From an uncultured Candidatus Binatia bacterium (GTDB lineage Bacteria; Desulfobacterota; Binatia; UBA9968; JAJDTQ01): a stretch of 64,000 bases of DNA. The stretch is from positions 2,592,001 through 2,656,000 of the forward strand of contig OZ243916.1 in the NCBI GenBank assembly GCA_965213675.1. Direction: 5' to 3'. This document shows positions 51,962-64,000 of the stretch, in pieces. Every line of letters begins with the position of its first letter. The first letter of the stretch is position 1. Under the pieces are notes generated by a model, which was not told the DNA's origin, ran no database searches, and was given only the letters and a program-made list of their open reading frames with translations. Both the position numbers and the translations under genes were made by a program.

Positions 51962-53482
51962 GTGACCTTCATCAGACCGACGCTGGAGCAGATGCGGGCC
52001 GTGGCCGGCGATCTCGGCATTGATTTGTCGGACGACGAACTGGCCGGTTATCTGGAGCGGATGGAAGGACTCTCCCGCGCCTATGCGGCGGTGGACGAGG
52101 AACCGGAACCGGCGCCGACGGCTCGGCGGCGCTCCTGGCAACGCCCGGAGCCGGATCTGAACCGCTGCAACGCCTGGTTCGTGAAGACGTCCATCCGGGA
52201 AGCGTACCGCGGCCGGCTCGCGGGCAAAACCCTGGCGGTGAAGGACTCCATCTGCGTGGCAGGGTTGCCCACGATGAACGGCGCCTCGTTCGTCGTGGGC
52301 TACGTACCCGACGTCGACGCCACCGTGGTCACCCGGGCGCTCCGCGCCGGCGCCGAGATCGTCGGCAAGACCAACTGCGAGTACCTGTCCCTCTCGGGCG
52401 GCAGCCATAGCGGCGCCAATGGACCCGTCATCAATCCGCACAAGGCCGGCTATTCCGCGGGCGGCTCGTCATCGGGCAGCGCCGCGGCCGTAGCGGCCGG
52501 CGACGCGGACATGGCCTTGGGTTGCGACCAAGCCGGTTCCATCCGGGTGCCAGCGGCCTGGTGTGGCATCATCGGGCTCAAGCCCAGCCACGGGCTGGTC
52601 CCGTACACCGGCATCCTGGGCCTCGACCCGGCCGTGGACCACTGCGGCCCCATGACCCGGGACGTGGACACCAACGCCCTGCTGCTGGAGGTGCTGGCCG
52701 GACGCGACGGCATGGACCCGCGTCAACCCGGCTCATGGCAACCGGTGCGATACACCCGCGCGCGCCGGGCCGGCGCCAAGGGCTTGCGAGTGGCCGTGGT
52801 AAAGGAAGGCTTCGGACACCGCAACGCGGAAGCCGAGGTAGACGAGAGCGTGCAGGCCGCGGCCGGCGCCTTGGCTGCCGCCGGTCTCGATGTCGCCGAG
52901 GTATCGGCGCCCGTTCACAAACGGGCTTGGCTGCTGGCCCAGCCCATCTACGTCGAGAGCCTAGCCCGCTCACTGGGCATGTGCGGCATCATGCCCGGCG
53001 CGGAGGGTCTCGGCTCGTCAAGCCCTGCCGAGCCCTTCGCCGCCTGGCGTCAACGCTGGCGGGAGCTGCCCGAGAACGTGATGGCCCTGCTCCTGTTCGG
53101 CGGCTTCGTGCGGCGCCGCCACCCGGGACGCTACTACGTCAAGGCGCAACAGCTTCGCCGCGCCATCCGCCGGGGCTATGACGAGGTCTTCGCCGATCAC
53201 GACCTGTTGCTCATGCCCACCACGCCCATGGCAGCCACACCCCTGCCCACCGCCGGCGCCGATGCCGCCGAGCGCGCGCGGCGCGCCAGCGAAATGCTGG
53301 CCAACACCGGCCCTTTCAACGTCACCGGCCACCCGGCCATCTCTCTGCCCTGCGGCGCCACCAAGGACGGCCGGCCCGTGGGAATGATGCTGGTGGGCCG
53401 GCTCTTTGACGAGGTCACGATCTATCGAGCCGCGTATGCGTTCGAGGAGGTGCGACGAAAGACGAACCCGCGCTTGCCGTGA
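51962..53482 (+). CDS. Amidase (amidase-signature family)
   Basis: AVKDSI, GGSSSGS, GCDQAGSIRVPA. Confidence 0.92.
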   Translation: MTFIRPTLEQMRAVAGDLGIDLSDDELAGYLERMEGLSRAYAAVDEEPEPAPTARRRSWQRPEPDLNRCNAWFVKTSIREAYRGRLAGKTLAVKDSICVAGLPTMNGASFVVGYVPDVDATVVTRALRAGAEIVGKTNCEYLSLSGGSHSGANGPVINPHKAGYSAGGSSSGSAAAVAAGDADMALGCDQAGSIRVPAAWCGIIGLKPSHGLVPYTGILGLDPAVDHCGPMTRDVDTNALLLEVLAGRDGMDPRQPGSWQPVRYTRARRAGAKGLRVAVVKEGFGHRNAEAEVDESVQAAAGALAAAGLDVAEVSAPVHKRAWLLAQPIYVESLARSLGMCGIMPGAEGLGSSSPAEPFAAWRQRWRELPENVMALLLFGGFVRRRHPGRYYVKAQQLRRAIRRGYDEVFADHDLLLMPTTPMAATPLPTAGADAAERARRASEMLANTGPFNVTGHPAISLPCGATKDGRPVGMMLVGRLFDEVTIYRAAYAFEEVRRKTNPRLP

Positions 53483-53661
53483 GAGCCCCAGCCGTGAACG
53501 GGGCTGGCTGGGTTGCGGCCGAGCCCCTCGCCCGCGGCCGTTCGGATGTCCATGGTCACAGGCTGCCTCCCGTTTGCTCAGAATCGAAAGTCGCCGCGAA
53601 AGGACCGTTGCCAGCGCCGCGTGGCTGGTTTTTGGCGGCGTCTGTATGTTTTCAAAACAAC

Positions 53662-53691
53662 TTGACAACGGCCGGGCGTGTCGAGTACGGT
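53662..53691 (+). promoter_or_regulatory. Sigma70-like promoter for the leader RNA / NYN gene
   Basis: TTGACA (53662-53667), 18-nt spacer, TACGGT (53686-53691). Confidence 0.55.
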
Positions 53692-53696
53692 AGCCA

Positions 53697-53762
53697 ACTA
53701 CTCCCCCTGTTCGCTTCGGCGACAGGGCGCAAGGCTGCCGCAAGGCAGCCTTAGCTTTTTTT
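53697..53762 (+). ncRNA. Putative small structured leader RNA ending in an intrinsic terminator
   Basis: Hairpin 1 53705-53727 with C(UUCG)G tetraloop; hairpin 2 53731-53752 (9-bp stem, GCAA loop) followed by T7. Confidence 0.55.
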
Positions 53763-53774
53763 GGGCCGGCACTC

Positions 53775-54398
53775 ATCCGTACCAACATCTATATCGACGG
53801 TTTTAATCTCTACTATCGTGCGCTTCGGGGTACGCCTTACCGTTGGCTCGATATTGGGAGGCTGGCGCGGACCCTGCTTTCCCGTCATCACATATGCCGG
53901 ATACGGTACTTCACCGCCTTGGTCGCCAACCGCGCTGGCGACTCCACCCAGGCGCAACGGCAACAGGCTTACATCCGCGCCTTGCAGACCATACCCGACT
54001 TGACCATCCATTACGGCCATTTCCTTGCGAAAACCAAGCGGAGACCGCTCGCTCGCCAACCAAATACCGGCCCACGCACCGTCGAGATACTGGACACCGA
54101 GGAGAAGGGTTCAGACGTCAATCTCGCCTCCTACCTGTTGCTGGACGGCTTTGAAGGAGAATACGAGATGGCCGTCGTGATCTCCAACGACTCCGACCTG
54201 GAACTTCCCGTCCGAATGGCACGGACCAAGCTCGGAAAGGAGGTAGGAGTCTTCGACCCGAGCCGCAGACGGAGCTTTCAGTTGCACGACGCGGCGTCTT
54301 GGTACAGACCGCTACGCGAGGGTCCACTGCGCGCCAGTCTTTTCCCTGATACCGTCCGGGACGCGCATGGCTCCATAACCAAACCAGCAGGCTGGTAG
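53775..54398 (+). CDS. NYN (LabA/DUF88, PIN-fold) ribonuclease; apparent ATC start
   Basis: In-frame IRTNIYIDGFNLYY upstream of the ORF-track start; EEKGSDVNLA and VISNDSDL acidic motifs; no ATG/GTG/TTG in frame between the stop at 53691 and 53919. Confidence 0.85.
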   Translation: MRTNIYIDGFNLYYRALRGTPYRWLDIGRLARTLLSRHHICRIRYFTALVANRAGDSTQAQRQQAYIRALQTIPDLTIHYGHFLAKTKRRPLARQPNTGPRTVEILDTEEKGSDVNLASYLLLDGFEGEYEMAVVISNDSDLELPVRMARTKLGKEVGVFDPSRRRSFQLHDAASWYRPLREGPLRASLFPDTVRDAHGSITKPAGW

Positions 54399-54507
54399 GC
54401 CAACGTGTTCAAGAAGATAGCTTCAATCTACGGTTGCGCCTTCTCCGGAGGCACCGTGTAACGCCTGCCAAAGGACCCCGATTGGATCGAGGGTTCTTCA
54501 AGATACG

Positions 54508-54791
54508 TCACAACGACAGCGGCGGGTCCCGGAAGACCTCTTTGCGGTGCCATTGAACGAAGTCGGGGTCGGGGTCCAAGGTTCGATTCTTCGGCGGGCG
54601 CAACCGCTTGCCATGGAAGTCATCGAACAATTCCGAGGGGTTGACGTCGCTGGAGACGAGTATCCTGAAGTCGTCGTCCACGGGATCGAGGCCGAGGGCG
54701 CCGCGGTCGAACAGCTTGTGGTCGGACCAGCACAAGGCCAACCCGTTGAACACTTCATCCGGGCCGCCCGCGGCATGCCACTTGATATGCG
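54508..54791 (-). pseudogene. C-terminal fragment of an HNH restriction endonuclease (resembles PT-DNA-directed SBD-HNH family), cut by IS3
   Basis: (A)HIKWHAAGGPDEVFNGLALC..DHKLFDRG...WHRKEVF; the frame runs directly into the IS left end. Confidence 0.75.
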
Positions 54792-54854
54792 TGGTCTTAC
54801 CCGGGTTTGGTGGACATCTGATAAGAGGCGAAGATGGCCTCGGAGGTGACGACC

Positions 54855-55142
54855 ATGACACGGAAGAGACGGAAGTTTTCGAAGGAGTTCAAGCAGGAAA
54901 CGGTCAAGCTGGTCAAGGAAGGACCGCGCTCGGTGGGAGAAGTCGCGCGTGATTTGGACTTGACGGAATCGGCGGTACGCAACTGGGTGCGGCAGTTCGA
55001 CGTGGACGCTGGTGTGCGCGAGGGGGTGAGCACGGGCGAGCTCGAGGAGGTACGCCAGCTGCGGTCGGAGAACCGGCAGCTACGGATGGAGCGCGACATC
55101 CTAAAAAAAGCGACGGCCTTCTTCGCCAAGGAATCGATGTGA
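54855..55142 (+). CDS. IS3 transposase OrfA
   Basis: RRKFSKEFK HTH, ERDILKKATAFF. Confidence 0.9.
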   Translation: MTRKRRKFSKEFKQETVKLVKEGPRSVGEVARDLDLTESAVRNWVRQFDVDAGVREGVSTGELEEVRQLRSENRQLRMERDILKKATAFFAKESM

Positions 55143-56002
55143 GGTTCGCGTTCATCGAGGCGGAGAAGGCCAGATTTCCCGTGACCATGATGTGCCGGCT
55201 GCTTGAGGTTTCTCGAAGCGGGTTCTACGCTTCGCGTGGGCGTCGTGAGAGCACGCGGGCAGGGGAGGACCGCCGCTTGCTGGTCCACATCAAGGCGAGC
55301 CACACGGCGTCGCGTGGGACCTACGGCAGCCCGCGGGTGCACCGGGACCTGGTCGAGGACGGCGTGGCAGTCGGACGGCACCGCGTAGCGCGTCTGATGC
55401 GCCAGGAGGGCCTTCGCTCCAAGCGCCGGCGCCGCTACCGGGTGACCACCCACTCGGACCATCACCACCCGGTGGCAGCCAACGTGCTGGAGCGCGACTT
55501 CACCGCCGATGCCGAGAACTGCAAGTGGGCAGCGGACATCACCTACGTGTGGACGCGCTGTGGCTGGTTGTACCTGGCGGTGGTGCTTGACCTGTACTCC
55601 CGCCGGGTGGTCGGATGGGCGATGTCCAATCGCCTCACACGGGAACTCGCGTTGAACGCCTTGGGCATGGCTCTGACCCACCGGCCTCGGCCCGAGCTGC
55701 TGCTGCACCACTCTGACCGCGGCAGTCAATACGCTTCGGCCGACTACTGGCGCCTGCTCGATGCCCACGGCATCCAATGCTCCATGAGCCGGCGCGCCAA
55801 CTGCTGGGACAACGCCGTCGTGGAGAGCTTCTTTGCTACCCTGAAGACCGAGCTTATCCACCACGTCGACTACCCCACTCCAGCCGAGGCAAGGGCCGCG
55901 ATCTTCGAGTTCATCGAGGTGTTCTACAATCGGCAACGTCGCCACTCCACCCTCGGCTACCAGACATCAGCTGGCTTCGAACGGATGGCACCGGCAGCTT
56001 AA
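55139..56002 (+). CDS. IS3 transposase OrfB (DDE)
   Basis: WAADITY, HSDRGSQY, DNAVVESFF. Confidence 0.92.
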   Translation: MRFAFIEAEKARFPVTMMCRLLEVSRSGFYASRGRRESTRAGEDRRLLVHIKASHTASRGTYGSPRVHRDLVEDGVAVGRHRVARLMRQEGLRSKRRRRYRVTTHSDHHHPVAANVLERDFTADAENCKWAADITYVWTRCGWLYLAVVLDLYSRRVVGWAMSNRLTRELALNALGMALTHRPRPELLLHHSDRGSQYASADYWRLLDAHGIQCSMSRRANCWDNAVVESFFATLKTELIHHVDYPTPAEARAAIFEFIEVFYNRQRRHSTLGYQTSAGFERMAPAA

Positions 56003-56036
56003 CTAATCTGTCCACCAAACCCGGGGAACGCCAGCA

Positions 56037-56601
56037 TGTACCTGGTGGCGGTGATGGACTGGGCCACCCGCCGGGTGCTCTCCTGGCGGCTGTCGAACAC
56101 CCTCGATGCCCGCTTCTGTGTCGAGGCCCTCTCAGAGGCTCTGGAACGCTACGGTCCTCCCGAGATCTTCAACACGGACCAAGGCAGCCAGTTCACCAGC
56201 CTGGAGTTCACCTCCGTGCTCAAGGACGCCGGCATTGCCATCTCCATGGACGGCAGGGGCCGGTGCATGGACAACATCTTCATCGAGCGCCTGTGGCGCT
56301 CCCTCAAGTACGAGGCCGTCTACCTGCACGAGTTGACCGACGGCTTCGCCGCCCAAAGGGCCATCGCCAACTGGCTCCACTTCTACAACACCCAAAGACC
56401 TCATTCCGCCCTCGCCGGCTCCACCCCGGCGGAGGCCTACGAACCAGGACTCCACAGGCCGGACCTCACACCCCGCCCGCCCCTCTGACAGTTCCATCGG
56501 AACACGAAGACGTGATAAACGGGACCTTGGCGGCATGATCGATCGTCTGGAATACACCTTAACTCCGCCGCCTTCCTGTCCTACAAACCAGGACCACCTC
56601 A
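56037..56601 (+). mobile_element. 3' remnant of IS3-family element B (partial orfB plus right IR)
   Basis: Near-identical to the reverse complement of 57074-57642; ends ...ggaccacctca; a small indel shifts the orfB tail (stop 56488). Confidence 0.9.
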
Positions 56602-56740
56602 GTCCGTGCCCGCCCAGTCGTCCACGGCATCCGGAAGAAGCAGCTGCTGCGAACGATCATCGCCTGGAATGTGTGTCATGTCCCCATCATACCAAACTCG
56701 CCCGCTCCCCGTGATGGCAGGTCGAGTTCTCACACGGGCT
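56602..56740 (-). mobile_element. Left-end remnant of an IS1182-family element
   Basis: ATG 56679 gives MTHIPGDDRSQQLLLPDAVDDW (IS1182-type N-terminus), cut by element B; terminal agcccgtgtgagaactc next to a hairpin. Confidence 0.65.
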
Positions 56741-56744
56741 ATGC

Positions 56745-56769
56745 GCCGGGACCCCAACGGGGTCCCGGC
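56745..56769 (-). terminator. Strong hairpin downstream of the zinc-ribbon gene
   Basis: gccgggacccc-aac-ggggtcccggc, 11-bp perfect stem; no U-tract, possibly lost to the IS insertion. Confidence 0.55.
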
Positions 56770-56775
56770 CTCTGT

Positions 56776-56925
56776 CTAACACCGATTGTACGTTGTACTC
56801 TGGCCGCGACCGCAGTTGCCACAGGGCGGCAATCGGTCATCGGGGTCGTTCAGATACACACTCCAGTTGCAGTTGGTGCAGCAATATCTACCTATACCGG
56901 GTTTCTCGCCAATGTTGTAAGCCAC
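56776..56925 (-). CDS. 49-aa zinc-ribbon protein (YjzC/DUF1451-like)
   Basis: AGGAGG RBS, GTG 56925; GEKPGIGRYCCTNC...LPPCGNC. Confidence 0.75.
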   Translation of the reverse strand: MAYNIGEKPGIGRYCCTNCNWSVYLNDPDDRLPPCGNCGRGQSTTYNRC

Positions 56926-57136
56926 TGAGAACCTCCTATTCGTCACTTCTCCCCCAAGATAACGGGGTGCCTCCGGCCTTGACCAGGGAGTTGTAAGTGC
57001 GCCACAAGGTGGGTTGACCTTCGTCCCTAGGGTGTGGAAACGCCAAGTCATGTGCATCTAGCACTTCTTCTTGTGAGGTGATCCTGGTTTGTAGGACAGG
57101 AAGGCGGCGGAGATAAGGTGTATTCCAGACGATCGA

Positions 57137-58060
57137 TCATGCCGCCAAGGTCCCGTTTATCAGGTCTTCGTGTTCCGAAGGAACTGTCAGAGGGGCGGGC
57201 GGGGTGTGAGGTCCGGCCTGCCTCTGGAGTCCTCGTTCGTAGGCCTCCGCCGGGGTGGAGCCGGCGAGGGCGGAATGAGGTCTTTGGGTGTTGTAGAAGT
57301 GGAGCCAGTTGGCGATGGTCCTTTGGGCGGCGAAGCCGTCGGTCAGCTCGTGCAGGTAGACGGCCTCGTACTTGAGGGAGCGCCACAGGCGCTCGATGAA
57401 GATGTTGTCCATGCACCGGCCCCTGCCGTCCATGGAGATGGCAATGCCGGCGTCCTTGAGCACGGAGGTGAACTCCAGGCTGGTGAACTGGCTGCCTTGG
57501 TCCGTGTTGAAGATCTCGGGAGGACCGTAGCGTTCCAGAGCCTCTGAGAGGGCCTCGACACAGAAGCGGGCATCGAGGGTGTTCGACAGCCTCCAGGAGA
57601 GCACCCGGCGGGTGGCCCAGTCCATGACCGCCACCAGGTACAGGAAGCCACTCTGGACAGGGATATAGGTGATGTCGGAGGTCCACACGTGATTGGGCCG
57701 TTCGATGGCGACGCCCTTGAGCCGATAGGGATAGACCCGGTGCTCGGGGTGCGGTCGGGTGGTGCGCGGCGCCTGGTAGATGGCCTGGAGCCCCATCAGG
57801 CGCATCAGACGCCGCACCCGGTGACGACCCACTCGGACTCGCTCCCGCCACAGATGGCGGACCATCTGGCGGCTGCCGTAGAAGGGGTACTCCAGGAACA
57901 GCTCATCGATCCGGCGCATCAACGCCAGATTCTCCGCGCTCTCGCCCTTGGGCCTGTGGTACACAGAGGATCGGCTCACTCGAAGCAGATGGCATTGACG
58001 GCTCAAGCTGAGCTTGGGATGGCCGGGCTCGATCATCCCCCGGCGCTTCTCCCGGCTCAC
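57137..58060 (-). CDS. IS3 transposase OrfB
   Basis: PFYGSRQM, WTSDITY, NTDQGSQF, DNIFIERLWRSLKYE. Confidence 0.92.
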   Translation of the reverse strand: MSREKRRGMIEPGHPKLSLSRQCHLLRVSRSSVYHRPKGESAENLALMRRIDELFLEYPFYGSRQMVRHLWRERVRVGRHRVRRLMRLMGLQAIYQAPRTTRPHPEHRVYPYRLKGVAIERPNHVWTSDITYIPVQSGFLYLVAVMDWATRRVLSWRLSNTLDARFCVEALSEALERYGPPEIFNTDQGSQFTSLEFTSVLKDAGIAISMDGRGRCMDNIFIERLWRSLKYEAVYLHELTDGFAAQRTIANWLHFYNTQRPHSALAGSTPAEAYERGLQRQAGPHTPPAPLTVPSEHEDLINGTLAA

Positions 58061-58338
58061 CACTTGAGCCCCTTGGCCAAAAAATCCCGCTCCACCGTCA
58101 GCTCCCCGATCTTCGCGTGCAGGTCCCGGACCTCCCCCTCGTGGTCTCCTCGTGCCCGCTCGGCTCCCTTCGAGAACACCTCCTTCATCCCCTCCACCGC
58201 ACGCTGCTTCCACGTGCTCACTTGGTTCGGATGGACCTTGTGCCGCGACGCGAGCTCCTGGATCGTCTTGTCTCCGCGCAGCGCCTCCAGCGCTACCTTC
58301 GCCTTGAACTCTCCGCTGAACCGTCGTCGTGTCCTCAT
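58057..58338 (-). CDS. IS3 transposase OrfA
   Basis: RRRFSGEFKAKVALEA, KIGELTVERDFL. Confidence 0.9.
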   Translation of the reverse strand: MRTRRRFSGEFKAKVALEALRGDKTIQELASRHKVHPNQVSTWKQRAVEGMKEVFSKGAERARGDHEGEVRDLHAKIGELTVERDFLAKGLKW

Positions 58339-58802: not shown

Positions 58803-59153
58803 ATGGCCTCTCCTTCTGAAATCTTTCGGCAGCGTTTGAGGGCGGCCAGGGGTACACGCGACTGGAGTCAAAGCGATTTGGCCCAGCGCGCTGGCTTGCC
58901 GCCTAGTTCGATAGCGCACTTTGAAACCGGATCACGCAAGCCATCTTTCGACACCTTGCGGCGACTCGCTAGTGCATTGGAAGTTACGACCGATTACCTT
59001 TTGGGAAGAGTCGAGGAACCTGGTCTTGCCGAAGCCGGAGACCCGTTATTCCGAGATATCGGTAATCTCACCGGCAGCGACCGCGAACTAGCCAGGGACT
59101 TCCTCAAGATGTTGGCGGACCGCAACGCAGCCAAACACAAGGAAGGCAAATGA
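58803..59153 (+). CDS. XRE-family HTH transcriptional regulator
   Basis: WSQSDLAQRAGL..SSIAHFETGSRKPS..TL..LA.AL.VTTDYLLG. Confidence 0.92.
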   Translation: MASPSEIFRQRLRAARGTRDWSQSDLAQRAGLPPSSIAHFETGSRKPSFDTLRRLASALEVTTDYLLGRVEEPGLAEAGDPLFRDIGNLTGSDRELARDFLKMLADRNAAKHKEGK

Positions 59154-60013
59154 GTGTGGCGTTTGGTCTGGAGATGGCCGAAAGGGAAGGGGAAGCCATA
59201 GTCGGTAGGCTAGGCATTCATTCCCTGCCCATAGATCCTATCGAGATTGCGAAACACCACGGCATCGCGGTTGAACCAAAACCCGACGCCGCTGAGGGTG
59301 TGTCCGGAATGCTCCTTCGTCACGGCGACACCTTTGGGATTCTCTATGCCACTCACATCGCAAGCAAGGGTTTCCAGAGGTTCAGCATAGCCCATGAGCT
59401 TGGGCATTATTTCCTTGATGGACACATAGATCATGTCCTCAAAGACGGCCCTCACAGCTCAAATGCAGGTTTCTCTTCCCCCAACCCTTACGAACGGGAA
59501 GCCGACAGTTTTGCGGCTGGCCTGCTGATGCCGGGTCACCTATTCCGCAAAGAGCTGAACCAAGAAGCCCCAGGGCTAGCTACAATTGAGGCATTGGCCG
59601 ATCTCTGTCAGACATCCCTAACAGCGACTGCAATTCGGTACGCCAAATTGACCGAAGACGCGGTCGCCGTGGTCGTGAGTACCGGCAAAGCCATCAATTT
59701 TTGTCGGCTCTCGGATGCCATGACGTCGTTGGCTGAGATCACATGGCCAAAAAAGGGCGATCTTGTTCCGTATGGCACCGCTACTGCGGACATCAATGCC
59801 GATCCTGCCCGGGTCGCCCTGTTGGACCGCGCAGAAGCGGAAATCGACATCCTGGACTGGTTGGGCGGTCAACGGTCCGTGCAAGGGACAGAACAGGTCA
59901 TGGGACTCGGCAGCTACGGCAGGACCCTTACTGTTCTTTCTGTAGATGACATGTGTGAAGAGGACGAAGAAGAAAGCCTAACCGAGAGTTGGACTCCACG
60001 TTTGCGTCGATAA
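59150..60013 (+). CDS. ImmA/IrrE-family Zn metallopeptidase
   Basis: RFSIAHELGHY (HExxH), EREADSFAAGLLMP, SLTATAIR; ATGA coupling to the XRE gene. Confidence 0.92.
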   Translation: MSVAFGLEMAEREGEAIVGRLGIHSLPIDPIEIAKHHGIAVEPKPDAAEGVSGMLLRHGDTFGILYATHIASKGFQRFSIAHELGHYFLDGHIDHVLKDGPHSSNAGFSSPNPYEREADSFAAGLLMPGHLFRKELNQEAPGLATIEALADLCQTSLTATAIRYAKLTEDAVAVVVSTGKAINFCRLSDAMTSLAEITWPKKGDLVPYGTATADINADPARVALLDRAEAEIDILDWLGGQRSVQGTEQVMGLGSYGRTLTVLSVDDMCEEDEEESLTESWTPRLRR

Positions 60014-60076
60014 GCTCGCGCGGGCTTGGGCGTGACGCGGTCATCACTGCTTTGAATAGCGCACGGAGTCTATCCA

Positions 60077-60946
60077 ATGGCTAAAGAGGAAAGCGTAACC
60101 GTCTACCGGGCTCTCAGCTTGGGGGCTGGAGCCCAGAGTTCAGTTCTAGCGCTCTTGCTTTCTCGGTCCGATGCTCGCTTGGCCAAGCTTGGTTATCGGA
60201 AACCCGACGTCGCCATCTTTGCCGACACTGGATGGGAGCCTGAGTACGTTTACCGCCATCTGGACTGGCTAGAAAAACAACTGACCTATCCATTAGTCCG
60301 GGTATCCGAGGGCAATCTAAGGACGAACCTGAAGCGAGGTCGAACTGTATCGGGTCATCGTTTCGTTGATGTACCCCTATTCACGATCGATCCGGGTGGC
60401 AAGAAGGGGATGCTGCGGCGGCAGTGCACGAACCACTACAAGATACGGCCCATCTATCGACGAATTCGGAGGCTTGCTGGTGGACAACCTGGCCGACCGT
60501 TTCCCAGAGATACCCATGCCGAAATGTGGCTTGGTATTTCCCTGGACGAGGTGGGCCGCATGAAGCCGAGTAGGGAGTCGTGGGTCGAACATCGCTGGCC
60601 TCTTGTCGACATCGGCATGACGCGTGAGGATTGCATCGACTGGTTCAACTCTGAGTATCCAGAACGCCATCTGCCTCGGTCAGCCTGCGTCATCTGCCCC
60701 TACCGCTCAGACGACCACTGGTCGGAACTCAAGGAGCGTGAACCGGCGAGCTACAAGGAAGCCATCGAGTTCGACCGCTGGCTTCGGAGAAGCACCGACA
60801 CCCCTATACGGAAGCTGTTGAATGGCCGACCGTACCTGCACGCGGCTCGCCGTCCCCTCGCCAGTGTCATGGAAGACCGGGAGACGGGCCGCGCGACCAG
60901 CATCGACAACTTCAACAACGAGTGCGAGGGCCTCTGTGGTGTCTGA
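60077..60946 (+). CDS. Cys-rich PP-loop (adenine nucleotide alpha hydrolase / PAPS-reductase-like) protein
   Basis: LSLGAGAQS, FADTGWE, RRQCT..YKIRP, RSACVICPY, terminal ECEGLCGV. Confidence 0.8.
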   Translation: MAKEESVTVYRALSLGAGAQSSVLALLLSRSDARLAKLGYRKPDVAIFADTGWEPEYVYRHLDWLEKQLTYPLVRVSEGNLRTNLKRGRTVSGHRFVDVPLFTIDPGGKKGMLRRQCTNHYKIRPIYRRIRRLAGGQPGRPFPRDTHAEMWLGISLDEVGRMKPSRESWVEHRWPLVDIGMTREDCIDWFNSEYPERHLPRSACVICPYRSDDHWSELKEREPASYKEAIEFDRWLRRSTDTPIRKLLNGRPYLHAARRPLASVMEDRETGRATSIDNFNNECEGLCGV

Positions 60947-62186
60947 GACAGGAACCGTGACAATCAGGCCAGAATATCCCTTGTACCCATACCAAAGACA
61001 AGTTCTGGCCGACATTCTCCGTGCACTATCATCTCCTGAACCTCGTGTGGTCGCTCATCTTCCTACCGGCGCCGGCAAGACTCGGATCGCAGCACACGCC
61101 GCTTGTCACCTCCTCAACGAAAGGGACACCGAAGACTCTCTCGTCATCTGGCTGGCAGCCACAGAGGAACTTTGCGAACAGGCGGCCGACCAACTGTCAG
61201 ACGCGTGGACGCATCTGGGCCGGCGCGAGGTCTCCATTCATCCCTATTGGGGAAGCCAGTCAACTGACTTGCGACGTCTCCCCTCCGGTTTCTTGGTGAC
61301 CGGCCTTGCCAAGCTACGCTCCATTGCCTTCCAAGACAACACCCTTCTCGCGCACCTAGCCCAGTGTGCCGCGGCCGTCATCTTTGACGAAGCTCACCAG
61401 GCGATCGCCAACACCTACTCCTACATTACAGACCAGCTTTGCAGTGTAAGGCCACCCCTTCTCGGCCTCACAGCCACTCCCGGGCGGACCGCGAATATCA
61501 CGGATGCCGACTTTCGGCTTGCAGAGATGTTCAAGCACAACAAGGTTTCTATAGATCCAAGGGGGCACGACAACCCAGTTACCTATCTGATTCAAAACCA
61601 CTACTTGGCCGATCCACGCTTCGTGCCAATCGGCTTCGATTCGGACACGACGATCACTGAGCCCCTGCCCGGGGCCGACTACAGCACAGAGGATCTCAAG
61701 GACATGGGCCGGAGCCGCCAACGCACACGCAAGATCGTAGAACTAGCCGAGGATGCAGCGGCACGCCATCCCCGCACTATAGTGTTTTGCCCGTCTGTCG
61801 AAAGTGCTCTGGAATGCACCGACCTCCTTCACGCAAAGGGTGTCATTGCTGATGTTGTCACCGCTGAGACCCCCATAGAAGTTCGTCAAACCGCCATCTC
61901 AGCCTTCCGAAGTGACCGCAGGGAACACATGGTGATATTGAACTACGGTGTACTGACCGCCGGGTTCGACGCTCCGCGCACCCGATGCGTCATCATCGCG
62001 CGGCCAACAACGTCGCTAGTGCTTTACTCACAGATGGCCGGGCGGGCGATGCGCGGCCCTAAAGCCGGTGGAAATTCAAAGGCCGAGATACTCACGGTGG
62101 CAGACACGAACCTACCGGGGTTCGGGTCCGTGACTGATGCCTTCACAAATTGGGAGCACCTATGGTCAACCAACTCGCCGAATTAG
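60939..62186 (+). CDS. Superfamily 2 DEAD/DEAH helicase (ResIII-like)
   Basis: LPTGAGKT, DEAH, GLTATP, LTAGFDAP, QMAGRAMRG; the likely GTG start overlaps the upstream stop. Confidence 0.9.
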   Translation: MSETGTVTIRPEYPLYPYQRQVLADILRALSSPEPRVVAHLPTGAGKTRIAAHAACHLLNERDTEDSLVIWLAATEELCEQAADQLSDAWTHLGRREVSIHPYWGSQSTDLRRLPSGFLVTGLAKLRSIAFQDNTLLAHLAQCAAAVIFDEAHQAIANTYSYITDQLCSVRPPLLGLTATPGRTANITDADFRLAEMFKHNKVSIDPRGHDNPVTYLIQNHYLADPRFVPIGFDSDTTITEPLPGADYSTEDLKDMGRSRQRTRKIVELAEDAAARHPRTIVFCPSVESALECTDLLHAKGVIADVVTAETPIEVRQTAISAFRSDRREHMVILNYGVLTAGFDAPRTRCVIIARPTTSLVLYSQMAGRAMRGPKAGGNSKAEILTVADTNLPGFGSVTDAFTNWEHLWSTNSPN

Positions 62187-64000
62187 AACACGCAGACCGC
62201 AACCTTTTTCCGAGCAATTTCACGATAAGGGCGCTGCGGGATAGCCGGTACCACAACACCGCCTACGCCATTGCTGAACTGATTGACAACTCCGTTGAAG
62301 CACACGCCGAGCAAATAGACCTCCTCTGCATGGAGCGGGTGCAAAACACCGCCCTCCAAAAGCGTCGACGAGTATCCGAGGTGGCCGTCATCGATAACGG
62401 GGTGGGAATGGATGTCAAAACGCTCTTCGAGGCCCTGAAATTTGGAGGAGGAACCCGTCACCACGCAGACCGAGGGATCGGAAAATATGGAATGGGCTTG
62501 CCCACGTCGTCAATGTCTCAGTGCAAAAGAGTAGACGTCTGGACATGGCAGGAGGACATAGATTCGGCGTGGCATTCCAGTATTGACGCCGACGAGATCG
62601 AGCAAGGGGACCACAGAGCTCCGCTCCCCGACCGAGACACACCCATACCGAAGGTGTGGTTAGAGGCGGCCAGCGACCGCATACTCAACCATCGCTCCGG
62701 TACAATTGTCGTATGGACAAAGCTCGATAAGATCCAATGGCGCACCGGCGGCACCATCCTTCGGCACACCGCGCGAGAGGTCGGTCGTATCCACCGCTAT
62801 TGGATTGATGCCGACATGACCAAGATACGCATCGGGTATTTTCTCAACAACCGACCGACAAATATCGAAAACGAAGGCCATATTGTGGCCAACGATCCTC
62901 TCTACTTAATGACTCCTTCCTCGACACCCGCACCATGGGACAACAAGCCAATGTTCAAGCAATGGGCGACACCTACCGAATATACGGCCACTGTGGACGA
63001 CAAAGAGGTGCCGATCCAGGTACGATACTCCATCGTCACACCCGAAGCACTACAGACCACCGTCGTTGCGCAGCTTCCCGGCGCGACAGACCACGGCAAA
63101 CACGCTAGACATAACATCGGGGTATCTGTTGTTCGAGAGGATAGGGAGATTGTACTCGAAACGGCCTTCCTCCGAGAGGGCGGGAGTGCAGAAAATCCAC
63201 AAAACCGGTGGTGGGGCTGTCAAGTCCAATTCGGTCGTGTTTGCGACGAGTTGTTTGGAGTAGACCACAACAAACAAATGGTCGCTAACTTTACCCACGC
63301 TGCAAAGACTCTCCTCCAAGACGACCGTCCGAATCAAGTCATACTTGACGAGTTGGGCGTCGACGATGACATCATCTACACCATAGTTGCAGACATCCGC
63401 GACCAGACCCGCGCAATGATGGCCACCATTAGACAAATGTTTGCACAACGACGACCTCAACCACATGGACCTACGACGAATAATCCCGAAAAGAAGGCGG
63501 CAAAGACCGCCACTGAGGCTGACCGAGACGCGATGGAATCTGGCAAGGAGAACCCCACCAAGACGGACCGGGATCGGGACGACATTCCGCCAGAGGATCG
63601 CGAGGCTGAACTTACCAAACAGTTCATGAACGCCGGGCAAACGGCTCAGGACGCCAAGACGCTCGCCAAACTGCTTGTGCAGGAGGGCCTTTCTTACCAA
63701 TTCAACTCGATGCAGCTCGACGGTTTCCAAATATTCAATGTTCGGTCGAACCAAGGGGTTCTACACATCAATCTGAACACCGATCATCCCATTTATGACC
63801 TCCTCAAACACATTGAAGACGACCTTCCTGAGGATGTCGACGAGAACAATCCCGCGTTCCAGGCCAGCGTGGCGATCAGATTGTTATTGTCATCGTGGGC
63901 TCGAATGGAGGATCAAACCGAATCACGCGAACAGCGCGCACACATACAGGACACCGCCATGAACTGGGGACGTCAGGTTGATAAAGCTATCAGCCAGTTG
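62162..64000 (+). CDS. MORC-like GHKL ATPase (runs off the window; absent from ORF track)
   Basis: Manual translation from ATG 62162: ALRDSRYHNTAYAIAELIDNS, IDNGVGM, GIGKYGMGLP, SGTIVVW, later GVSVVREDRE, RWWG, DELFGV..NKQ; no stop seen to base 64000. Confidence 0.9.
   Translation, partial: MVNQLAELEHADRNLFPSNFTIRALRDSRYHNTAYAIAELIDNSVEAHAEQIDLLCMERVQNTALQKRRRVSEVAVIDNGVGMDVKTLFEALKFGGGTRHHADRGIGKYGMGLPTSSMSQCKRVDVWTWQEDIDSAWHSSIDADEIEQGDHRAPLPDRDTPIPKVWLEAASDRILNHRSGTIVVWTKLDKIQWRTGGTILRHTAREVGRIHRYWIDADMTKIRIGYFLNNRPTNIENEGHIVANDPLYLMTPSSTPAPWDNKPMFKQWATPTEYTATVDDKEVPIQVRYSIVTPEALQTTVVAQLPGATDHGKHARHNIGVSVVREDREIVLETAFLREGGSAENPQNRWWGCQVQFGRVCDELFGVDHNKQMVANFTHAAKTLLQDDRPNQVILDELGVDDDIIYTIVADIRDQTRAMMATIRQMFAQRRPQPHGPTTNNPEKKAAKTATEADRDAMESGKENPTKTDRDRDDIPPEDREAELTKQFMNAGQTAQDAKTLAKLLVQEGLSYQFNSMQLDGFQIFNVRSNQGVLHINLNTDHPIYDLLKHIEDDLPEDVDENNPAFQASVAIRLLLSSWARMEDQTESREQRAHIQDTAMNWGRQVDKAISQL

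Follow-up and report, generated by a model that had tools for sequence, protein, structure and literature searches.

The locus lies in a window of 64,000 nucleotides, the whole stretch of DNA that was analysed, from an uncultured Candidatus Binatia bacterium. It is a self-contained cassette of two genes, one for a structured small RNA and one for a NYN ribonuclease of the HEC-09 family. Its features are the following.

53662–53667, plus strand: TTGACA, −35 box of the promoter for the small RNA, read from the sequence
53686–53691, plus strand: candidate −10 box TACGGT, 18 nt past the −35 box and matching TATAAT at 3 of 6 positions
53697–53763, plus strand: small structured RNA gene of about 62–67 nt, with a predicted 5′ end
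53705–53727, plus strand: helix P1 with unpaired C residues ahead of it; 9 bp, 1-nt bulge, UUCG loop (53715–53718)
53729–53755, plus strand: helix P2, stem of an intrinsic terminator; 11 bp, bulged A, GCAA loop
53756–53762, plus strand: run of seven T, the terminator tail, from the sequence and a terminator scan
53763–53765, plus strand: weak Shine-Dalgarno-like GGG, 9 nt ahead of the ATC
53775–53777, plus strand: ATC, inferred non-canonical start codon, from alignment to the starts of relatives
53775–54398, plus strand: gene for the HEC-09-family NYN ribonuclease, 207 codons and a TAG stop, from Pfam, PADLOC and AlphaFold2

A sequence-only reading of this DNA had pointed out the TTGACA box, the UUCG-capped hairpin, a GCAA-capped 9-bp hairpin, the T-run and a NYN gene beginning 12 nt after it. 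All of these are present at the positions it gave, with ATC 53775 as the putative first codon of the gene. The 9-bp core of P2 (53731–53739 paired with 53744–53752) is continued by 2 more base pairs past the bulged A, and a terminator scan calls the P2/T-run site. The predicted fold of the 67-nt segment 53697–53763 consists of exactly P1 and P2 (−34.8 kcal/mol, z = −5.25), and none of 200 shuffled sequences folds as well. A promoter scan of positions 53000–55000 returned no promoter-like site and did not call TACGGT. The sequence TTGAC(A/G/T) is kept at the same position in the 26 close-clade rows of the alignment, and relatives carry a TAnnnT pattern at the same spacing. The 5′ end of the approximately 65-nt RNA and the efficiency of its termination are predicted; the public sequencing runs containing this stretch are four DNA runs from a single study, with no RNA run listed.

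The NYN protein and its start codon

The protein matches the Pfam NYN family (PF01936) over residues 2–162 (E = 5.2e-10; score 40.4 bits, curated cut-off 24.2), and no NCBIfam model matches it. A PADLOC search returns HEC-09 alone (PDLC04163, E = 8e-41), with residues 2–207 aligned to positions 3–202 of the 203-position profile. The AlphaFold2 model has a pLDDT of 94.7; its best match in the PDB is 2qip (E = 2.4e-8), and the NYN domains of MARF1 (5yaa, 6fdl) are also found. Across 55 sequences, eight residues never vary: D8, N11, E110, K111, D114, N138, D139 and D141. The invariant acidic residues and the NYN fold predict a protein competent as a ribonuclease. The fold and the conserved acidic residues are shared with the LabA/MARF1-type NYN ribonucleases (2qip, 5yaa, 6fdl), while sequence identity to these is only 10–16%. 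Unlike them, the window family has a β-hairpin insert and a C-terminal β extension, and a dedicated small RNA travels along with it.

The reading frame is open from 53694, directly after the stop codon TAG at 53691–53693, to the stop codon TAG at 54396–54398. Its first ATG, GTG or TTG is the TTG at 53919, which lies 3′ of the first catalytic motif, YIDGFN. There is no canonical start ahead of that motif, which bears out the earlier claim that it can be translated only from ATC 53775. The accompanying claim that the gene has no Shine-Dalgarno sequence is nearly right, except for the GGG at 53763–53765. By eye, GGAGG, GAGGA or GGGG stands about 8–11 nt ahead of the same codon in several relatives.

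The ATC aligns with an ATG, TTG or GTG start in 42 of 53 more distant loci (12 of these 53 start with TTG), and in 25 of 27 close-clade loci the first codon is ATC or ATT. In two loci, L011 and L014, the frame is closed by a stop five codons upstream, and a canonical start is lacking. The frame is intact from the ATC or ATT codon in 24 of 28 close-clade loci and is 624 nt long in 23 of these and in the window. The median dN/dS is 0.10 over the 161 usable pairs out of 231, with dS at about 1.7, and synonymous variation begins already in codons 2–12. Purifying selection thus acts on the NYN gene despite its ATC or ATT start, and the weak start itself is conserved, since ATC or ATT occurs in 25 of the 27 clade loci at a dN/dS of about 0.10. 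Initiation at ATC 53775 itself is inferred from the alignment, and such starts may reflect expression of NYN that is low by design. The textbook example of non-canonical initiation is infC. Beyond it, few comparative cases of conserved initiation at AUC/AUU are as clear as the present family.

A conserved small RNA linked to NYN genes

A covariance model of the RNA, R1, scores the window copy at 66.6 bits (E = 1.7e-18). Covariation was assessed in two alignments. The first, A2, was made with MAFFT from 25 diverse copies, with no structure imposed on it: paired cells make up 96.7%, and 16 of 20 pairs show changes on both sides. Compensatory changes occur in 7 of the 9 P1 pairs and 9 of the 11 P2 pairs, with 98.9% of P2 cells pairing. 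None of 500 shuffles reaches the observed value on four of five measures, and 2 of 500 do so on the fifth, further pair types; controls in which A2 was slid out of place pair in only 34–52% of cells. The second, A3, is fitted to the model and holds 81 distinct rows; here too paired cells amount to 96.7%, and compensatory changes are seen at 17 of 20 pairs. G-U pairs are frequent in A3 (one pair, for example, is UG in 37 rows), which makes the structure specific to one strand, that in the sense of the promoter. On an earlier MAFFT alignment, A1, RNAalifold predicted P2 only. P1 was missed there because it is out of register between clades, a problem handled by aligning the subset A2 and stating the structure. 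Conservation of the leader structure among homologues, which the sequence-only reading had proposed as a check, is found in both A2 and A3.

Some of the sequence is also nearly invariant, namely a run of C, the UUCG loop and a GGG-GCRAG junction. Rfam 15 holds nothing that covers the window RNA at E ≤ 10 or the RNAs of 10 diverse loci at E ≤ 1, and no tRNA or tmRNA was found in this region of the window. A conserved molecule of two covarying helices, the RNA has a promoter match directly upstream and a terminator-like end. By BLAST the leader DNA is single-copy in its own genome; the covariance model finds a second, diverged copy of the RNA and a third, weak one there. The same genome has a second NYN copy, split between two reading frames.

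R1 matches (E ≤ 1.1e-8) of about 66 nt adjoin 78 of 80 homologous NYN loci from nine phyla. In the remaining two, the contig ends 17 nt upstream of the gene (L063) or the N-terminus of the gene is degraded (L075); all assessable intact NYN genes of the set have the RNA. It lies upstream on the same strand in 70 of the 78 loci, downstream and convergent in 6 and upstream and divergent in 2. No protein-coding neighbour is conserved across the loci. The layout of the 70, with a terminator between RNA and NYN gene, is that of the window (hairpin and seven T), and the median gap of 11 nt between the end of the RNA model and the first codon leaves no space for a second promoter.

Promoter matches of at least 9/12 precede 60 of 81 distinct RNA copies, as against 6 of 405 random stretches. 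Among the distinct convergent or divergent copies 5 of 7 have a promoter match of their own, the other two being from Streptomycetaceae. Three of the 78 loci (L032, L055 and L039) carry two tandem RNA genes, each behind a −35-like TTGAC box. The varied orientation, an argument drawn from 8 of the 78 loci, and the promoter match on most copies point to a separate small-RNA gene rather than merely a leader. On a FastTree phylogeny the convergent form takes three changes; this arrangement may nonetheless have a single origin. What the sequence-only reading had described as a NYN ribonuclease with its own leader RNA has accordingly held in part: covariation, linkage and the conserved ATC or ATT start lend strong support to the idea of an RNA partner of its own, made in excess through a terminator and a weak start, whereas a separable gene found in three orientations is not a mere leader.

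High-scoring RNAs also stand beside interrupted NYN genes (L024, L027, L031, L034), and one 99%-complete genome (G081) has three orphan copies and no NYN match at all. In a sample of 151 genomes from the window's own phylum, 4 of 10 strong RNA matches have no NYN gene inside 1.5 kb. This suggests that the RNA may have an existence independent of NYN. An RNA that outlasts its NYN gene would be the asymmetry expected of an antitoxin, an argument open to bias, the loci having been found through their NYN similarity and an RNA of 66 nt being slower to decay than a gene of 620 nt.

Neighbourhood and known relatives

The cassette was earlier placed at the edge of a defence island, and the island is real. 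Downstream of NYN lie an HNH fragment, IS3-family copies, capH (E = 3e-28) and capP (E = 2.9e-66), with weaker matches to SspD, PbeA-type helicases and the MzaB ATPase. The GC content of the cassette is 57–60%, compared with 64–72% across the 3.6 kb upstream; no flanking direct repeats were found at the window copy. Elsewhere the neighbours vary, and restriction or defence-type genes adjoin 8 of 32 loci examined. Since the genes upstream change between loci and most RNA copies come after a promoter match, the reading that the hairpin merely terminates the transcript of the upstream amidase gene, which had been named as an objection, is rejected. A candidate amidase terminator at about 53611–53636 has a fold no better than that of shuffled sequences (z = −0.5).

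Homologues of the NYN protein occur on 450 plasmid records, including E. coli plasmids of 3.4–4.6 kb, and in a Mycobacterium prophage. Of the first 5 records of these plasmid and prophage homologues to be examined, 4 carry the RNA as well; no R1 match was found for a plasmid homologue from M. intracellulare. Distant gamma-proteobacterial plasmid homologues (28–37% identity) have weak R1 matches of 17–28 bits, which in 5 of 6 loci immediately precede the gene and are no more than suggestive.

In type III toxin-antitoxin systems (ToxIN, AbiQ/antiQ, CptIN, TenpIN) the gene for an RNA stands together with that for an endoribonuclease, a terminator between them, so that RNA should be in excess of protein. 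Their RNA is an array of 34–36-nt repeats that the toxin cuts out. The window cassette likewise has an RNA gene and an endoribonuclease gene, with a terminator between them in its common layout, and its family shares with type III a life on plasmids, in prophages or in defence islands. The differences lie in the parts. The cassette toxin would have a NYN/PIN-like fold where type III toxins are ToxN/AbiQ-like; the protein does not belong to the ToxN/AbiQ/CptN/TenpN family, its fold being NYN and its only PADLOC match HEC-09. Instead of an array, the cassette has a single structured RNA of about 65 nt with its own promoter and terminator, and unlike in type III its gene can sit on the opposite strand. 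No short tandem direct-repeat array was found at the cassette, and there are at most two complete RNA genes per locus. The only repeat reported by TRF is an 11-nt row of 2.1 copies inside hairpin 2, in line with the earlier statement that tandem repeats are absent. That the locus is not a classical type III one also holds, both toxin family and repeat array being absent. By analogy the cassette would be type III-like in its logic and not in its family.

HEC-09 (Hma-embedded candidate 09) was introduced as a single-protein candidate defence NYN ribonuclease, also with a MARF1-like NYN fold (Payne et al., bioRxiv 10.1101/2024.01.29.577857). Together with its putative native promoter region it is reported to have given no protection against the phages tested, and the terms 'non-coding' and 'ncRNA' are absent from the main text of that paper (bioRxiv 10.1101/2024.01.29.577857). 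The window protein belongs to the same family by a full-length match, and both are often found among or inside defence genes. The linked small-RNA gene, its independence of orientation and the conserved weak starts go beyond that main text. Embedding in an Hma (helicase-methylase-ATPase) locus is not seen in the window, where the gene sits between the amidase gene and IS elements; helicase and ATPase genes begin about 6.4 kb downstream and match PbeA and MzaB profiles, not Hma. In one relative (L046) methylase and ResIII genes flank the cassette, which is embedded in a restriction locus. A full-text search of the open-access literature, covering for the HEC-09 preprint its main text, found no RNA linked to this NYN family. 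The unreported RNA partner may bear on the lack of a HEC-09 phenotype so far.

Proposed mechanism and alternatives

An abundant small RNA that restrains a scarcely made NYN ribonuclease, in a type III-like or abortive-infection logic built from unrelated parts, is a reading to which we give about even chances from the comparative evidence. The small-RNA promoter would fire constitutively, and most transcripts would stop at P2 and the T-run to yield a stable RNA of about 65 nt. Only rare read-through transcripts would carry the NYN frame, and these would be poorly translated because of the AUC start, the weak Shine-Dalgarno sequence and the abutment of P2 on the ribosome site. With both steps inefficient, the RNA would far exceed the protein. 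It would bind NYN, probably around the conserved P1/P2 junction and the C-rich 5′ tail, and hold it inactive. A shortage or displacement of the RNA, as upon phage infection, transcription shut-off or plasmid loss, would free the ribonuclease to cut cellular or invader RNA. More tentatively, at slightly less than even chances, such cassettes may form a new RNA-protein class of toxin-antitoxin or abortive-infection systems, in which a single small RNA of about 65 nt neutralises a NYN protein kept low by read-through and AUC/AUU/UUG starts. The span of this putative class, put forward just as tentatively, would be at least nine bacterial phyla, hundreds of plasmids (among them E. coli plasmids of 3.4 kb) and a mycobacterial prophage.

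Tight linkage, covariation and independence of orientation would suit an activating partner equally, so that the RNA could instead be a required cofactor, guide or scaffold of a NYN protein that is inactive alone. It would then direct or license cleavage, perhaps via the unpaired C-rich 5′ tail, and such a role fits the finding that sequence is conserved along with structure, in the run of C, the UUCG loop and the GGG-GCRAG junction. This is unlikely, if well worth keeping in view: a cofactor does not predict a terminator and weak starts by which protein would stay much scarcer than RNA, nor RNA copies that survive beside broken or absent NYN genes, and a tail of a few, nearly invariant nucleotides could not hold the variable target information of a guide. 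Another role would be that of a cis-acting 5′ leader or attenuator that throttles or autoregulates NYN and has no function in trans. The ribonuclease genes rne and rnc control their own leaders, and in the 70 same-strand loci, where the RNA lies between the sole visible promoter and the gene at a median distance of 11 nt, it must be the leader of any NYN mRNA. It cannot belong to that mRNA in the 8 loci where it is on the opposite strand, with 5 of 7 distinct copies there behind their own promoter match. Given also the orphan copies and the tandem duplicates, each behind its TTGAC box, a purely cis-acting leader is distinctly improbable.

Far less probable is a type I-like control of the mRNA, in which the C-rich tail masks a G-rich ribosome-binding site of NYN. 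Unpaired C residues do precede P1 in nearly all copies, and by eye GGAGG or GGGG follows the terminator in many close-clade loci. The complementarity is merely 3–5 nt, and in three convergent actinobacterial loci (L029, L030 and L077) a −10 box stands 7–8 nt ahead of the start; judged by eye, these NYN mRNAs would be leaderless and have no Shine-Dalgarno sequence to mask. It is similarly very hard to credit that the window copy is dead, its ATC a decayed ATG and its hairpins just what is left of a promoter and terminator, or else a mobility site at the level of DNA. The missing canonical start ahead of the catalytic motif, the IS elements and HNH fragment adjoining the cassette and the split second NYN copy of the genome would fit decay. 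The clade-wide ATC or ATT codon, the intact frames, the low dN/dS, the synonymous variation from codon 2 onwards and the lack of flanking direct repeats speak against it, while the G-U pairs reveal selection on one RNA strand rather than on a DNA hairpin.

To our knowledge, RNA antitoxins that act on proteins form only a few related families. If the antitoxin reading is true, an unrelated and far more widespread solution would change searches for RNase-based defence or addiction modules, as the RNA half escapes catalogues of proteins alone, PADLOC among them. It would also supply a concrete hypothesis for HEC-09, a candidate defence gene that has had no phenotype so far. Covariance model R1 marks such cassettes in any genome, and their presence on tiny E. 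coli plasmids makes each step of the antitoxin model testable in a laboratory strain.

The cassette and its small RNA

The sequence-only reading of this region described a TTGACA promoter, a UUCG hairpin, a GCAA hairpin, a T7 tract and an NYN gene starting at ATC 53775, and all of these are found in the sequence as described.

53662-53667, plus strand: -35 box TTGACA, read in the sequence
53686-53691, plus strand: -10 candidate TACGGT, a poor -10, with an 18-nt spacer to TTGACA
53705-53727, plus strand: hairpin P1 (9 bp, one bulge, UUCG loop)
53729-53755, plus strand: hairpin P2 (11 bp, bulged A, GCAA loop)
53756-53762, plus strand: T7 run, called together with P2 by a terminator scan
53775, plus strand: presumed ATC start codon, 12 nt past the T7 run
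53694 to 54396-54398, plus strand: NYN frame read from the sequence, open from 53694 to the TAG stop

A consensus scan called no promoter-like site in 53000-55000, TACGGT included. The stretch 53697-53763 folds into P1 and P2 at -34.8 kcal/mol (z -5.25), which none of 200 shuffles equals. The NYN frame holds no ATG, GTG or TTG before 53919, a position 3′ of the YIDGFN motif. The same reading saw no Shine-Dalgarno (SD) sequence; a full SD is indeed absent before the window's NYN gene, which has only GGG, and by eye many relatives carry GGAGG, GAGGA or GGGG about 8-11 nt before the start. The GC content of the cassette is 57-60% versus 64-72% in the 3.6 kb upstream, and a search for flanking direct repeats found none.

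The upstream DNA of 80 homologous NYN loci from species-representative genomes was read. Nearly all follow one plan, comprising from 5′ to 3′ a -35/-10 pair, a short A/U-rich start, a C run, P1 with its UUCG cap, a junction of 1-2 nt, a G+C-rich P2 with a one-base bulge and a U-tract, with the NYN start a few bases further 3′. Covariation among homologues had been proposed as a check, and the structure proves conserved. For 25 diverse copies aligned with plain MAFFT, unfitted to any structure and with the secondary structure written by hand, pairing holds in 96.7% of cells, and both sides have changed in 16 of the 20 pairs. Covariation scores 0.486, versus 0.208 in shuffles; for four of five measures none of 500 shuffles equals the observed value, and 2 of 500 do so for further pair types. 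When partners are offset by 1-3 columns, pairing falls to 34-52%. At E <= 1.1e-8, a covariance model made from this alignment finds 83 copies, spread over the window and 78 of the 80 loci. The model-fitted alignment shows covariation at 17 of 20 pairs, although fitted alignments lean towards the structure, and G-U pairs are common, indicating that the structure is selected as RNA on the promoter-sense strand. Copies from four other sources, each folded as a single sequence, form P1 and P2 as well, and Rfam 15 holds no family found to match.

Copies of the Anaerolineae type (L035, L041, L045, L047, L051, L058 and L066) carry an internal loop in P1, 5′-UAGUA / 5′-GAAC, that surrounds a GC-UUCG-GC tip. 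This loop may resemble the loop E / sarcin-ricin bulged-G motif, a common protein-binding site.

The RNA as a separate gene

The RNA is a real, independently promoted and terminator-ended small RNA that is obligatorily linked to the gene of an apparently active NYN RNase. Its position relative to NYN takes three forms.

Position of the RNA relative to NYN in the 80 loci
70 loci: upstream, same strand; one has an extra copy past the gene
6 loci (L029, L030, L036, L077, L078, L079): just past the NYN stop, opposite strand (convergent); all Actinomycetota
2 loci (L062, L072): upstream, opposite strand (divergent); Acidobacteriaceae
2 loci (L063, L075): no RNA match; in L063 the contig ends 17 nt upstream of NYN with the tail of the RNA still visible, and L075 has lost the YIDGFN region

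The eight opposite-strand loci rule out a purely cis-acting leader for those loci. The leader RNA of the sequence-only reading therefore survives as a conserved structure that mostly lies upstream on the same strand, and has to be recast as a separable gene. A protein-directed partner acting in trans would explain every arrangement. In a FastTree phylogeny the convergent form appears in three places, with weakly supported branches that allow a single origin.

Five of seven distinct opposite-strand copies have a promoter-like pair on the RNA's own strand (TTGACA-16-TATGAT in L062), and none was scored before the two Streptomycetaceae copies. Overall, 60 of 81 distinct RNA upstream regions match the promoter consensus at 9/12 or better, versus 6 of 405 random stretches from the same loci. 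Tandem pairs of RNA genes occur in L032, L055 and L039, with a -35-like TTGAC box before each. At L012:3653-3718 a second copy of a different subtype lies on the same strand directly past the NYN stop, with no second NYN behind it.

The NYN protein and its start codon

The product translated from ATC 53775 is an NYN-domain protein (PF01936, E 5.2e-10). By sequence match it is a member of HEC-09 (Hma-embedded candidate 09), to which PADLOC assigns it over its whole length (E 8e-41); NCBIfam has no matching model. An AlphaFold2 model built with 55 homologues as input reaches a pLDDT of 94.7, and its best PDB matches are the NYN protein 2qip and MARF1 (5yaa, 6fdl). Residues D8, N11, E110, K111, D114, N138, D139 and D141 are invariant. 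The family is large, since 7850 of 8000 scored candidates have E <= 0.001 and homologues occur on 450 plasmid and 3 phage records. Payne et al. (bioRxiv 10.1101/2024.01.29.577857) present HEC-09 as a candidate defence gene embedded in Hma systems; cloned with its putative native promoter region, it protected against none of the phages tested there, and the preprint's main text never names a non-coding RNA.

Close homologues are annotated at 191, 201, 203, 207, 210, 212 and 229-237 aa. The N-terminal extensions of the homologues P0003 and P0004 versus P0033 are the same leader DNA translated in two different frames, and the 191-aa forms begin at a leucine codon 3′ of YIDGFN. These discrepancies indicate that gene callers are misled by leader DNA that is conserved yet non-coding and by the lack of a canonical start.

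Within the clade of the window's gene (27 loci at 68-83% identity), the position that corresponds to other clades' start codon reads ATC in 19 loci, ATT in 6, GTT in 1 and GTG in 1. In the 53 other loci it is ATG in 28, TTG in 12, GTG in 2, ATT in 2 (L034 and L067) and something else in 9; in six of these nine a canonical start lies 1-5 codons upstream. In 12 of the 27 clade loci, and in the window's gene, no canonical start stands in frame between the preceding stop and the motif. In L011 and L014 a stop lies five codons upstream of the ATC, leaving it as the sole candidate. The frame is intact from the aligned codon in 24 of 28 close loci, and is exactly 624 nt in 23 and the window. Among 22 intact genes median dN/dS is 0.10 and dS about 1.7 (161 of 231 pairs usable); the gene is not decaying. 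Codons 2-12 already vary synonymously and codon 1 toggles between ATC and ATT only. As ATG is one step away and has not been taken although dS is saturated, the weak start is being kept.

Distribution, proposed function and surroundings

Strong RNA matches span nine phyla (Chloroflexota, Actinomycetota, Acidobacteriota, Saccharimonadota, Spirochaetota, Verrucomicrobiota, Pseudomonadota, Eremiobacterota and Fidelibacterota). The convergent layout is also found in Mycobacterium phage prophiGD43A-1 and a Paenarthrobacter plasmid, and the tandem layout on a plasmid of Leptospira and on pKMi006_5, an E. coli plasmid of 3461 bp. The latter occurs in 4 of 5426 complete E. coli genomes, with the RNA unannotated. 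Distant NYN homologues (28-37% identity) on E. coli, Xanthomonas, Klebsiella and Pseudomonas plasmids (L105-L110) are directly preceded by a run of C, a first hairpin of greater length and a terminator of the form A5-stem-U6. The covariance model matches this upstream DNA weakly (17-28 bits), with position and strand agreeing in five of six loci. This design probably reaches far outside the analysed set.

In the window's phylum 7 of 151 sampled genomes have a strong RNA match. NYN adjoins 6 of their 10 matches, once truncated and once split between two frames. One genome, G081 (99% complete), has three RNA copies (L089, L095, L096) whose promoters are nearly identical, and lacks any NYN match; two of these orphans also share downstream flanks, and the RNA there may be carried by a repeated element or act on its own. 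The window's own genome has three modules. The second (L083, G000:C1:2975973-2976665) has a good RNA (50.5 bits) and an NYN split between two frames; the third (L085, G000:C1:549389-550159, minus strand) has an NYN insert of about 50 residues and a weak RNA match (18.5 bits) just upstream. Four interrupted NYN genes of the clade still adjoin high-scoring RNA copies, and every assessable intact NYN gene of the 80-locus set has the RNA. RNA without intact NYN, yet no assessable intact NYN without RNA, is what an antitoxin predicts, an asymmetry biased by the way the loci were collected.

In the mechanism that we favour, at about an even chance, the small RNA would bind and restrain the NYN RNase, and a failing RNA supply would release it. 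The design features of the cassette should hold the protein far below the RNA. That the RNA is a cofactor or guide of the RNase is unlikely, while being the foremost alternative. Next comes a role as leader only, also improbable, which suits the 70 same-strand loci and leaves the opposite-strand ones unexplained. Anti-SD pairing by the RNA has a very slight chance; so has a dead gene or DNA element, set against a gene that is not decaying and a structure selected as RNA.

The restraint mechanism shares its working logic with type III toxin-antitoxin systems. However, their toxin family differs from NYN and their antitoxin is a repeat array, which this RNA is not. Lacking these two defining features, the module is not a type III member, in line with the initial view that this is no classical type III locus. 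No description of the RNA half was found in the openly accessible full texts searched, with the HEC-09 preprint taken by its main text. Relative to the searched papers, three points appear to be new: the census of three orientations, the ATC/ATT start kept under purifying selection, and the asymmetry of orphan RNAs versus intact NYN genes.

Conservation spans the -35 box to the stop codon, and only near-identical genomes share sequence downstream. Among 130 flanking ORFs at 32 of 40 chosen loci there is no conserved protein neighbour, most being housekeeping genes. Restriction or defence-type neighbours occur in 8 of the 32: Type ISP (L017, L048), SNF2 and DUF3800 (L037), SIR2 (L041), Mrr (L067), PIN (L005) and RNase_T-WYL (L040), and in L046 (1532-5612) the cassette is flanked directly by an N6_N4 DNA methylase gene on one side and a ResIII helicase/nuclease gene on the other. 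The L046 cassette is embedded in a restriction-modification-like locus, much as HEC-09 is in Hma according to its paper. In the window, metabolic genes (PGI, amidase) lie upstream of the cassette, and downstream are found:

54508-58213: stretch with a truncated HNH_2 endonuclease ORF (minus strand), followed by the IS3-family copies below
54834-56002; 56036-56488; 57137-58213 (the last on the minus strand): three IS3-family transposase copies or fragments
within 58803-64000: capH/capP-type regulator pair, HTH and M78 peptidase (PADLOC E 3e-28 and 2.9e-66)

The IS3-family copies and the HNH_2 ORF separate the cassette from the defence genes. After capH/capP come weaker matches to SspD, a ResIII/DEAD helicase (PbeA-like) and a GHKL ATPase (MzaB-like) whose ORF runs past the window end, so that the earlier placement at the edge of a defence island is fair. 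In 58803-64000, CapH/CapP may control an unclassified defence system of several genes.
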